DNA from: Trichoplax sp. H2
Lineage: Eukaryota
Length of the DNA stretch: 64,000 bases
Assembly: GCA_003344405.1 (NCBI GenBank)
Contig: NOWV01000013.1
Coordinates: 744,001 to 808,000, forward strand
Direction: 5' to 3'
The translations under genes were made by a program, and so were the position numbers. The notes under the pieces were generated by a model. The model saw only the letters and a list, made by a program, of their open reading frames with translations, made no database searches and was not told the DNA's origin. How positions within the stretch are numbered: the first letter of the stretch is position 1; every line of letters starts with the position of its first letter. Of the stretch, positions 44,647-47,825 are shown one piece after another.

Positions 44647-47600
44647 ATGAAGATTCGCCTTTTGGCCTTGATTTTTCTACTTGTAATCTCCACTGCTTAT
44701 ACAGAAGAGATTCCATCATCAGATAAAACCGAAAATGACTTTCTCAGAAATATCGCCAGTTCAGCAGTTGATAACGTACTATATAAGGAGACCAATAATC
44801 AAAATATCGACGATAATTCAGATAGTCAGAGCACCGAATCGGATAAAGCTGAAACGGAAGATACCAGTCTTCGCGAAGTAGAATTTCAGGATAACAAAGA
44901 AATTATTGATGAAGATGGTTTAACCAAGTTCGATAATGAAATAGAAGAAGATAATTCGAATAAGGATGAAGACGAGCACGTAAATATCGATTAAATGATT
45001 GCTTAAAATATTTGATACTAATTTATATAGAATTAGTTTATAATAAGCATAGGCAGGTATTAAATTTGTGGGATAGCATAGAGATCGTTATTAAGTGTAG
45101 ACGATTCTTCTAGTTCAACGTGTATAAATCTATGATTACTATTGCTACAACTACGATAACAGATTGAGAATTAAGTAGAAAATTTCCTACGAGTATTTAA
45201 GCACAGAATATTAGCGTACTGTAAGCATATTACAAAAGGAACTTGACCTGTTACGAGCAGAAAAATATTTCAGTCGTGGAAAACTTTAACCTGTTAGTTG
45301 TGGGTGGTTTTAATCAATTATGATAGTATTCTAAATGGAAATGCAACAAAAAGAATTGCGCCTGTTAAAAGTTATTAATATCATAGAATGATAAAGTTAT
45401 CAGTTCAAATAATACTCGTATAGCTTTCACAAGAAGTATTGCCACTGGCCATTAAAAATTGAGAATAGAGTTAATTTATATTGAAAGATACTTGGAAGTA
45501 GTTTCGTTCTACATATTAATTGCTTCCTTGGAATTGAATTAGAGGGGATTAATTTACTGAATGTTGATTTATCAGTATAAACTAATTTACAGCTAGGTAT
45601 GTACTACTTCGGTACTGACAATTATTTGTGTGTTGGAATAGCAAGTCTGATTTCTTTATCTGGATAATTAAGGAAAACATATTTATATACTGTAGTATTT
45701 CTGCAGTACACATTTATTTTAAATCTACGAGGAGTAGGATTAGTCGATCTTAAGCAATGTTTATATCATTCAATGCTAGTCTAGATTGTTATTTTTCGTG
45801 CCTGTTTATTCGAATTTGAGTAGAAGAGATTAGCCCATCCTGAACGAAGTTATATCATACCAACAGTTTATTTATTTATTAAATTATGCAAGCTTAGGCT
45901 ATTATTACAAATGCTTATTGGGAATAAGAGACGAACTTACATATATGCAGTACAATTTTATATAATCAAAGTGACTTTAATTGCAATGTATATCTATATA
46001 TAAAATAAAGATGCGCTTATGTGTTGCTGATAATATCTTAATGTAGTTCTAGTTCTCCATAATCTGATATAATCATTGTACCTACATATAACCTCCATAG
46101 AAATCATCTTGGGGTCGTCGTCGTCGTCGTTGGATTAGACGCCGTCGTCGTCGTCGTCGCCGAACTCCGACAATCAATCCTTGTACCGGTTACATAACAA
46201 GTTTAAGACGATGCCAAAGTTCACGCAATGCTTTGCAAAGGCAAGTTTACATACTAAGAAGACAAAATAGTATATTGCGTCGAACAGTTTACAATCAAGG
46301 GTTAATCATTCGTCGATTAAGAGCCAAAAATGTGCGTCTTGTTCGACAAATGGCCTCACTTACAAGACAACTTCTCGTCATAAGGCGACAATATGCCGGT
46401 CTACGAGTGTGGTGTAATGGTAAGATAATCATATTAAAGCGAAGGATAAAAGCACTACAAGTGCAAATTCTCATACTTAGGAGGATAATTGCTACTAAAC
46501 AGGCCCAAATCAATCGATTGTCTGCTGTAATTCGTGTTAAAAATTCGATTATTAAACGGCTAAAAATAAGACTTATTTCCAAAGATGCCTTTATTCGTGG
46601 TCAGAAAATGATAATCGTCTTAAAAAATCGTAAAATTGCTTCCCTAAAAGCCCAACTATCTAGCAAAAACAGTGCCATTGGACGGTTACATCAAACCATT
46701 GCCCGTAAAGATGGCCTCATTCAGCAGTTATACGGTAGAATAGCTAAGAAAGATCGAACTATTTCTCAATTGCGTACAACCATTAACACCAAGAATCAAG
46801 AAATCACACGACTTAAAGGAATTATCTCTAATAAAGATCATCATATTACTCAATTGCAGCAAACTATCAGCAATAAGGAAACCACTATCAGTCAATTACG
46901 ACAAACTATAATCGTCAAAGATAGTCAAATCAGCCAATTGCAAAGTACTATTAAAAGTAAGAAAGCAGTAATCAATCAATTACGAGGTACAGTTGCCAAT
47001 CAGACTGCTACTATCAGCAGCCTGCGACAAACTATCGGCAGTCAAAATGCAACAATTCTGGAATTACATACTAAGGTTTTTAGTCAGACTCAACTTATTG
47101 GCCAACTTAATGCAACTATATTAAATCAAAGAATTCAAATTAATCAGTTACATGCCGTTATCGCTAGTAAAAATTTCACGATTGATAGTCAAAGTCAACA
47201 AATCACTGGATTGACTGGACGTCTTAGTAAGCTAAGAGCTAGAGTACGAAGGTTAAGATTTTCATTACAATCTCTAACGGCAACTGTAGGTACATTACGA
47301 CAAAAAATTTTAAGATTAAATGGGAAGTATCAAGTGTTAAAAGCCAAAATGGAAACTCTCAATATCCAACATCGACATGTCCAAAATGAAAATACTCGCT
47401 TGAACTCAACTCTACAAGCTAAAAATAGTCAGATTGAACAATTGAAATTGGATAAAATACATTTAAATAAGAATATTACGATATTGAAAAATCAGACTCG
47501 ACATTTGAATCAAAAATTAGATGATCAAAACGAAAAATTTAAAAATCTGACCGCAAGATTCGACAAAGCCGATATTTGTTGCCAGGCTTGTAATAGAAAA

Positions 47601-47825
47601 CCCATATCCGAAAATCCGTTTAATGTAACATCGTCTAGTAATACTAAAAATGAAGACGTAATAGCTTTTCAAGTGATATCAGAAGATGAGGTGAATGAAG
47701 AGAATCCATCGGAAAATTCGATAGATGAGAAGTCATCCGGAATTGAATCCAAAAAGAAAGATTCGAATGATGATCTTTCTGAAAGAGATTTTGATGAGAA
47801 TACTTTGGAAATGAGTTTAATCTAG
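44647..47825 (+). CDS. Secreted precursor C (~685 aa; exons 44647-44979, 46101-47825)
   Basis: Signal-like MKIRLLALIFLLVISTAYT, acidic propeptide, phase-0 intron (CAC|GTAAAT ... CCATAG|AAA). Exon 2 reads KSSWGRRRRRWI-R9-TPTINPCTGYITSLRRC, then a long heptad rod, ICCQAC and an acidic tail. TATAAA at 44074; 5'UTR donor at 44174. Confidence 0.9.

Follow-up and report, generated by a model that had tools for sequence, protein, structure and literature searches.

We analysed a 64,000-nucleotide (nt) stretch, hereafter the window, of Trichoplax sp. H2 (assembly GCA_003344405.1, contig NOWV01000013.1, positions 744,001 to 808,000 of the forward strand). The window is AT-rich and eukaryotic (G+C 27-38%) and carries five tandem paralogous genes, termed A to E, all on the + strand. 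Positions 46101-47825 (+) are the last exon of gene C, a three-exon gene that is spliced and expressed in Trichoplax sp. H2. The layout of the family can be read directly: a signal peptide, an acidic pro-piece of ~90 amino acids (aa), a poly-Arg block, and a continuous heptad coiled coil, which in C and D is followed by an acidic, sequon-bearing tail that is modelled as disordered in C. With a confidence that stops a little short of even, we interpret the five products as placozoan-restricted secreted pro-proteins, in which the acidic pro-piece masks a polycationic rod until cleavage by a convertase, and the rod binds polyanionic surfaces. An earlier note on this DNA had described a heptad rod with charge zoning in C and D; both the rod and the zoning are real, and the zoning is conserved.

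Precursor layout and charge zoning of gene C

The splice joint between 44979 and 46101 is present in contigs of all three RNA runs. A 1981-nt RNA contig is composed of 44925-44979 and 46101-48026, that is, the end of the prior exon, the entire second coding exon (exon 2), and the 3' untranslated region (UTR). RNA contigs further hold 65-92 letters 5' of 44617, the final 30 of which match 44141-44170 exactly, which points to a non-coding first exon. The deposited loci TrispH2_002206, TrispH2_002207 and TrispH2_002210 were confirmed by sequence as A, B and E, so that gene order makes C TrispH2_002208 and D TrispH2_002209. One run under another organism label (X2; RNA or DNA uncertain) spans the exons and intron of gene C (44400-48100), with 17 single-letter differences, six of which fall in exon 2, where the frame stays open, and with one 1-nt deletion in the 3' UTR, at 47957. 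The parts of gene C are listed below, with residues numbered on the translation of 46101-47822 (standard code).

44079..44173, + strand: non-coding 5' exon; 5' limit approximate; CAG/GTATAA donor at 44173/44174
...TTTCAG ending 44619, + strand: splice acceptor of coding exon 1; 44173 is spliced to 44620
44647..44703, + strand: signal peptide (MKIRLLALIFLLVISTAYT, 19 aa); basic n-region, then hydrophobic h-region; predicted cleavage point
44704..44979, + strand: acidic pro-piece, 92 aa, 31 Asp/Glu vs 8 Lys/Arg, net -23; GTAAAT donor at the exon end
44980..46100, + strand: intron, GT..AG, 1121 nt
46101..46163, + strand: KSSWG motif and poly-Arg block, aa 1-21, net +15, mostly CGT codons; putative proprotein-convertase site
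46164..46583, + strand: Asp/Glu (D/E)-free basic head, aa 22-161, 34 Lys/Arg and 0 Asp/Glu; contains the N-terminal Cys bracket
46710..47213, + strand: twelve 14-residue (two-heptad) repeats, aa 204-371, D/N-x-x-I-x-Q-L-x-x-T-I-x-x-K
47214..47591, + strand: distal rod, aa 372-497, net +17; module common to paralog E; ends in CCQAC
47592..47825, + strand: acidic tail, aa 498-574, 20 Asp/Glu vs 8 Lys/Arg, net -12; sequon NVT508; stop at 47823-47825
47826..48026, + strand: 3' UTR, reaching at least 48026 (RNA contig)

The composition of exon 2 is as the earlier note had described. The first 161 residues are without Asp or Glu, the first acidic residue being residue 162 (codon 46584), and they are packed with Arg (24.2%), Ile (13.7%), Leu (11.2%) and Lys (6.2%). 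Gln, Thr, Ser and Asn make up 45.5% of the middle (residues 218-371), and the last 60 residues contain 19 Asp/Glu vs 6 Lys/Arg. The single early Asp reported for exon 2 of gene B is likewise present: D21 is the one acidic residue ahead of residue 134.

The D/E-free run is beyond chance; a run of at least 161 residues arose in 2 of 20000 shuffles of the exon-2 protein of gene C. Paralog D is also D/E-free at the head, its first acidic residue being residue 166. Sequence identity between C and D is lowest in the head (60%), yet the charge of the head is kept: 56 of the 140 positions differ and not one of these carries Asp or Glu in either protein, whereas D/E is involved in 13 of the 95 differing positions of the remaining rod. 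At the rate of the remaining rod, the chance of finding none among 56 is 2.6e-4. The net charge of the head, +34 per 140 residues, compares with a maximum of +25 and a median of +6 among 147 unrelated coiled-coil proteins, which serve as a rough background.

Farther along the C precursor, aa 162-371 carry a net charge of +21, and the mature chain as a whole is +60. The net charge of the tail is -12 in C, -8 in D, -7 in E, -5 in A and +1 in B; four of the five paralogs thus carry an acidic tail. The acidic element common to all five genes is the pro-piece and not the tail. The nine sequons listed in the earlier note are exactly NQT300, NAT316, NAT337, NFT358, NST435, NIT458, NQT464, NLT482 and NVT508. 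Their number is not above that expected from composition, nine or more being obtained in 3994 of 20000 shuffles. Seven of the nine positions are retained in D and five in E, and the five sequons common to C, D and E are spread over the distal rod and the beginning of the tail.

A signal sequence with a basic n-region and a hydrophobic h-region was recognized by eye in all five paralogs; that of gene C is 84% identical in D. The pre-pro region, signal peptide included, has a net charge of -17 to -39 in all five. Runs of at least three Arg open the rod exon in every paralog, in keeping with the R-x-K/R-R consensus, and the poly-Arg block is a putative furin-type convertase site. Amidation is classically signalled by a Gly ahead of dibasic residues, and KSSWG/RRRR is the sole site of this kind in the exon-2 proteins of C and D; from this motif, the released acidic pro-piece might end in Trp-amide. 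K-S-S-W-G precedes Arg-Arg at 46101-46118 and is conserved in D at 53553-53570. The corresponding motif is K-S-G in A and K-S-W-G-W in B, and lacks Gly in E. We also note that CGT/CGC account for 12 of the 14 Arg codons of the poly-Arg block (46114-46159), while the remaining exon uses mainly CGA and AGA. The codon run resembles a trinucleotide repeat and could vary in length among strains.

Rod geometry and structure models

The long heptad pattern with hydrophobic a and d positions that characterizes an alpha-helical coiled coil is present in gene C in two frames, aa 29-95 and ~aa 99-484, with a single shift near aa 95-105. Position a is nearly always Ile (20 of the 22 heptads of aa 218-371), position d alternates Leu with Lys/Gln, and position g is Thr in the twelve 14-residue repeats. 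Tandem repeats at the DNA level are confined to the CGT run and a short 21-nt repeat in gene C, which indicates that the 14-residue protein repeats are old and diverged.

The rod is bracketed by cysteines. C28 (46182-46184) occupies position a and C38 (46212-46214) position d, and the C-terminal cluster CCQAC (aa 493-497, 47577-47591) places C493, C494 and C497 at g, a and d, respectively. Apart from C105, an additional cysteine of gene C, all cysteines are found only at the rod ends. Paralogs A, B, C and D retain the C-x9-C bracket of the N-terminal end; a C-terminal Cys cluster is present in all five paralogs and takes the form CCxxC in B, C, D and E. Measured from their first to their final Cys, the rods of C and D both span 469 aa and those of A, B and E 174, 178 and 175 aa, and the difference between the rods of C/D and E, 294 aa, is exactly 42 heptads. 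Taking the usual rise per residue of a coiled coil, the rods would be ~70 nm (C, D) and ~26 nm (A, B, E) in length.

It had been argued that an all-basic coiled coil is anomalous without salt bridges between e and g positions. Among the 16 g-e' pairs of the head, one is like-charged, eight combine a basic with a neutral residue (mostly a Gln partner), and seven are neutral. With only one like-charged pair, the head gives no ground for the view that an all-basic coiled coil must be unstable. In the whole rod, 3 of 62 g-e' pairs are of opposite charge, and the rod is apparently held by its Ile/Leu core and the terminal disulfides.

AlphaFold2 (AF2) modelled the precursor of B with a disordered pro-piece (predicted local distance difference test (pLDDT) <50), one helix at 139-318 with pLDDT 93-98, and a disordered tail. 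This helix runs almost exactly from Cys140 to Cys318, and the segment equivalent to the signal peptide is modelled as a helix at 4-16. Exon 2 of C is modelled as helical at 29-496 with a mean pLDDT of 63, and the tail residues 501-574 have pLDDT 33-38.

A homodimer of the head was modelled with two copies of aa 22-165 and scored 0.60, against 0.00 for the best of three controls. The score passes a calibrated mark that was reached by 21 of 30 proteins solved as one-chain pairs and by none of 23 solved single chains. On eukaryotes, the corresponding figures are 17 of 29 (animals, 7 of 16) and 0 of 30 single chains; eukaryotes without an older solved relative reached it in 1 of 7 only. Agreement of contacts among the runs is at least 99%, and the partner pLDDT is at least 90. 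The contacts are i-to-i (38-38, 45-45 ... 126-126) and fall on a/d positions, including C28, C38 and C105. The model supports, without showing it, a parallel and in-register pairing of the heads, which would bring the basic heads all to one end and the acidic tails to the other. We favour a dimer as the oligomeric state for two reasons: the N-terminal cysteines occupy two layers of the core, separated by ten residues, and could pair only within a layer, and a core with Ile at position a and Leu at position d is classically that of a dimer.

Paralogs, distribution and expression

The other members of the array are the following.

30886..32204, + strand: paralog A, TrispH2_002206; last two coding exons ~30886-31227 and 31455-32204, first coding exon upstream; exon-2 translation within profile-search match P0004
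38753..40047, + strand: paralog B, TrispH2_002207; exons 38753-39103 and 39361-40047; exon-2 translation within profile-search match P0002
52025..55307, + strand: paralog D, TrispH2_002209 by gene order; signal-peptide/pro exon 52025-52330, rod exon 53544-55307
57651..59925, + strand: paralog E, TrispH2_002210; exons 57651-58013 and 58978-59925; short rod with its Cys brackets 175 aa apart

Paralogs A and B also have short rods; that of A is not D/E-free, and B is without an acidic tail. The precursors range from 345 to 689 aa, and C ends in ...EMSLI, D in ...TDKS and B in ...VNDF. The rod exons of C and D are 68% identical and align ungapped across the rod except for one residue in the poly-Arg block. 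The ratio of nonsynonymous to synonymous substitution rates (dN/dS) between C and D lies at 0.24-0.63 in every region, which places the whole protein under constraint. The signal-peptide/pro exons of C (44647-44979) and D (52025-52330) show a dS of 0.15-0.20, while dS of the rod exon is 0.35-0.85. The low value in the former points to gene conversion, or to the two genes having exchanged their 5' exon more recently. A tblastn search with all exons against the 64-kb window found no sixth copy.

Counterparts of A, B and E in T. adhaerens are TRIADDRAFT_54834, XP_002110627 and TRIADDRAFT_54838, respectively, and E differs from the last of these in 3 of 436 residues. A published placozoan orthology table groups TrispH2_002208-002210 with TRIADDRAFT_54836-54838 and one gene each of Hoilungia and Cladtertia in orthogroup OG_4452, where the genes from these two genera are listed as Hhon_g10486 and HoiH23_PlH23_011442, and places A and B in separate orthogroups of their own. 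No relatives outside Placozoa were found in word-indexed protein searches, a profile search of 1.84 billion representatives, Pfam, PDB and the ESM Atlas. Word-indexed searches with exon 2 of C and with P0001 returned TRIADDRAFT_54838 only, and a search with the pro-exon of C among proteins of 61-195 aa gave no relatives. The profile search yielded 1244 matches at E<=1e-3; among 11 inspected of the 150 listed, the only family members were P0001 (E), P0002 (B) and P0004 (A). The other eight, P0003, P0005, P0006, P0007, P0092, P0106, P0123 and P0131, were rejected as unrelated repetitive or coiled-coil-type proteins, several of them acidic. The PDB sequence search gave a single weak coiled-coil match (8qox_B, E 4e-4), and the best score in the ESM Atlas, 0.83, is below the lead level. 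The deposited C and D proteins were never among the matches of the database searches.

In Pfam, only cross-matches to coiled-coil families of unrelated functions were obtained, most of them below the cut-offs, and the pro-exon had no match at E<=1. SlyX (PF04102), a protein of ~70 aa and of bacterial origin, exceeded its cut-off of 30 with 35.7 and 39.4 bits. These scores are spread over 3-4 separate stretches of ~37 aa in a eukaryotic rod of 574-587 aa, and the match is treated as a coiled-coil cross-match. A bZIP domain, named automatically in UniRef for the ortholog of A, was rejected: no bZIP family occurs in the best 25 of the 38 Pfam families at E<=1. Paralog A does match HALZ with 30.6 bits (cut-off 28.1) over 27 residues; its signal peptide and pro-piece are present.

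The expression context was taken from the supplementary tables of PMC10580291. There, A and C share module TrH2.orangered4 with a cathepsin D-like gene. B and D are in TrH2.maroon with 002211, 002212, synaptobrevin and two seven-transmembrane (7TM) receptors, and E is in TrH2.violet with FOXQ1, SV2B and an APAF1-like gene. The three modules belong to the community gc005, which is annotated epithelia_unknown and enriched in SH2, TPR, Death and synaptobrevin domains (PMC10580291). Alternate genes of the array thus share modules, A with C and B with D, each pair consisting of one short-rod and one long-rod gene. An exon at 62153-62623 (+) with a hydrophobic signal-like start and an acidic stretch gave no tblastn match to the family. 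Its place in the gene order suggests that it belongs to TrispH2_002211, the remainder of which would lie beyond the window. Elsewhere in the window, a tandem array with periods of 10, 15 and 20 nt (16256-16498; unit ACTGAACTGA and variants) produces the long open frames at 16243-16693 on both strands, which are not genes.

Literature searches found no publication on TRIADDRAFT_54838 or this family. The text supplements of PMC12013895 do not mention these genes, and no text discussing them was found in the parts covered of the supplementary tables of PMC10580291. For the family, its charge zoning, the cysteine brackets and the two rod lengths, no prior description was found; their deposited records name hypothetical proteins, and atlas tables list the genes.

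Proposed mechanism, alternatives and significance

According to the reading that we favour, the precursor would enter the secretory pathway and be cut by a furin-type convertase at the poly-Arg block. Before cleavage, the pro-piece would partly mask the cationic head during transport or storage, an idea suggested by two precedents, the acidic pro-piece of proMBP-1 and the layout of the Hydra arminins and of the arminin-like genes of Trichoplax. The mature chains would associate in a parallel, in-register manner, most likely into dimers stapled by disulfides, giving rods of the two lengths estimated above; the rods of C and D would have a polycationic end opposite an end with acidic tails. Rare secretory epithelial cells would release the rod, which would bind polyanionic targets, for instance mucus or the surfaces of microbes or biofilms. 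The binding of polyanions by the head had been suggested in the earlier note and is compatible with its charge, +34 per chain over ~20 nm. The rod would serve as a defence or attachment effector, with head-to-tail contacts at most secondary.

Several points weigh against this reading. In C and D, a pro-piece of about -20 faces a mature chain of +54 to +60, an imbalance that allows only partial masking. In the AF2 monomer of C, the helix is interrupted at 189-212 and 356-368, and these sites could be real hinges; since the heptad frame runs through both places, the folding back is likely a monomer artefact. Two copies alone were modelled for the head, trimers or tetramers are possible, and such models often pair helices regardless. 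The comparison of charge patterns covers Trichoplax sequences only, the RNA support consists of assembled contigs of a single study, and the domain enrichments describe a many-gene community across four species rather than these genes specifically.

The assembly put forward in the earlier note, in which, after loss of the pro-piece, cationic heads bind the acidic tails of neighbours to form fibres or nets, finds some support: the parallel, in-register head model sets opposite charges at opposite ends, and since the rod would be polar, such polymerization is physically possible. The tail is acidic in A, C, D and E and, being modelled as disordered in C, could reach a neighbouring head, and the third Cys of CCQAC, at position g, as well as C105 in gene C could form inter-rod links. 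The charges fit less well, as the tail of C has about one third of the charge of the head and one fifth of that of the mature chain. Moreover, B has no acidic tail and A no D/E-free head, so that head-to-tail pairing cannot be the logic of the whole family, in which the pro-piece is the universal acidic element. Seawater ionic strength also screens simple charge pairing, a matter of general physical chemistry. We consider polymerization of this kind improbable. A granule-packing or adhesive pair fares slightly better and is still unlikely. Here, cleavage inside the granule would yield an acidic peptide and a polycationic rod that condense as a complex coacervate and become a sticky or expanding material on release. 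One gene encodes both polyanion and polycation with a cleavage site between them in all five paralogs, the charges nearly balance in A (-39 vs +29), and the genes are co-expressed with regulated-secretion genes; the charges are far from balance in B, C and D, however, and no adhesive signature of the phosphoserine or DOPA type was noticed, although no search aimed at one was made. A precedent is found in adhesive proteins packed into granules by complex coacervation of opposite charges (PMC12621633). The cements of sabellariid tubeworms, marine animals as well, resemble the family in that polybasic and polyacidic secreted proteins condense in granules; they differ in that the charges reside on separate proteins, along with phosphoserine and sulfated polysaccharide (PMC12621633), whereas both charges lie within one precursor in the gene C family.

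Arg-Arg and Lys-Arg in the head could instead be convertase sites that free a set of short peptides, cationic and amphipathic, for antimicrobial defence or signalling. Aa 22-497 contain 14 dibasic sites, nine of them within the head, and the arminin-like genes of Trichoplax share the succession of signal peptide, acidic and basic parts (PMC12013895). Just 4 of the 14 sites (3 of the 9 in the head) are also dibasic in D, though, there are no repeated peptide units, and the only Gly-dibasic signal is the one ahead of the poly-Arg block. The unbroken heptad frame, the Cys brackets and the fixed rod lengths indicate an intact rod, and the genes sit in epithelial rather than peptidergic modules; a multi-peptide precursor is therefore very improbable. 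Least credible, to the point of being nearly negligible, is an ordinary intracellular coiled-coil or bZIP-like protein whose charge zoning has no extracellular meaning. It would agree with the automatic UniRef names of the T. adhaerens orthologs of E (Lebercilin domain) and A (BZIP domain) and with the many coiled-coil cross-matches in Pfam, SlyX included. A hydrophobic signal sequence followed by a pro-piece is present in every paralog, however, the conserved cysteines occur only at the rod ends, the sequons are conserved, and the Pfam matches are all to coiled-coil families of unrelated function, most of them below cut-offs.

The masked-effector reading that we favour has its closest parallels in two systems. 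The Hydra arminins and the Trichoplax arminin-like AMP1-4 (Ta 55945, 56030, 60631, 64402) are composed of a signal peptide, an acidic N-terminal region and a basic C-terminal region; the arminin-like genes are taxon-restricted and belong to epithelial secretory cells of Trichoplax (PMC12013895). The likeness is one of layout, as described in PMC12013895. Arminin-like precursors have ~150-250 aa, end in Gly and are thought to free short amidated peptides (PMC12013895). In contrast, the gene C family has far longer precursors, a Cys-bracketed coiled-coil rod of 174-469 aa, and an acidic-tail end in place of Gly. The arminin-like AMP genes also fall in 'lower epithelial' modules, whereas paralogs A-E are in 'epithelia_unknown'. 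The second parallel, proMBP-1, carries an acidic pro-piece of ~90 aa (residues 17-106) ahead of a very basic mature part, and this pro-piece is believed to neutralise the basic part en route to the granule; mature MBP-1, the eosinophil major basic protein, binds and damages membranes (PMC11483036). It is a 117-aa C-type lectin fold of net +15 (PMC11483036), in contrast to a coiled-coil rod of +60 per chain, and has no sequence or fold relation to the gene C family.

The rod itself recalls another class of proteins, and the design joins known ideas, an acidic-pro-piece-masked cationic effector and a disulfide-stapled extracellular coiled coil, in a form that was matched to no family. Fibrinogen, laminin and the matrilins are extracellular coiled coils stapled by interchain disulfides, and COMP ends in a Cys-x-x-Cys motif like CCQAC and CCDAC of the gene C family. 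COMP is likewise a secreted, parallel coiled coil with terminal interchain disulfides, but it forms a pentamer of ~7 nm on globular domains (PMC3487892). In contrast, the gene C family is without globular domains, is predicted to span 26 or 70 nm, is of extreme charge, and has a putative dimer as its favoured state. The Pfam and PDB sequence searches revealed no homology to COMP-type proteins.

A more elaborate picture, which we offer as conjecture and think rather unlikely to hold in full, would combine several of these elements. Length-defined rods of 26 and 70 nm would be co-expressed per cell type (A with C, B with D), each precursor being a built-in polyanion/polycation pair that condenses in granules after cleavage. 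Release into seawater would unfold polar, disulfide-stapled rods that stick to polyanionic surfaces and to the acidic tails of each other. The result would be a placozoan-specific extruded defensive or adhesive material and the defining function of the epithelia_unknown cells.

The rods would merit interest as a biomaterial motif if they turned out, at the salinity of seawater, to be antimicrobial, adhesive or self-assembling. Among acidic-masked cationic effectors, the family would be an unusual addition, a long coiled coil with hardly any g-e' pairs of opposite charge. Placozoan single-cell atlases distinguish several small epithelial populations whose markers are almost all unnamed, and the five family genes are among these markers. 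The epithelia_unknown cells thereby gain a concrete and testable product, namely, pro-proteins of the convertase type that are predicted to be secreted, whose rod geometry is precise and whose charge layout is both extreme and conserved.

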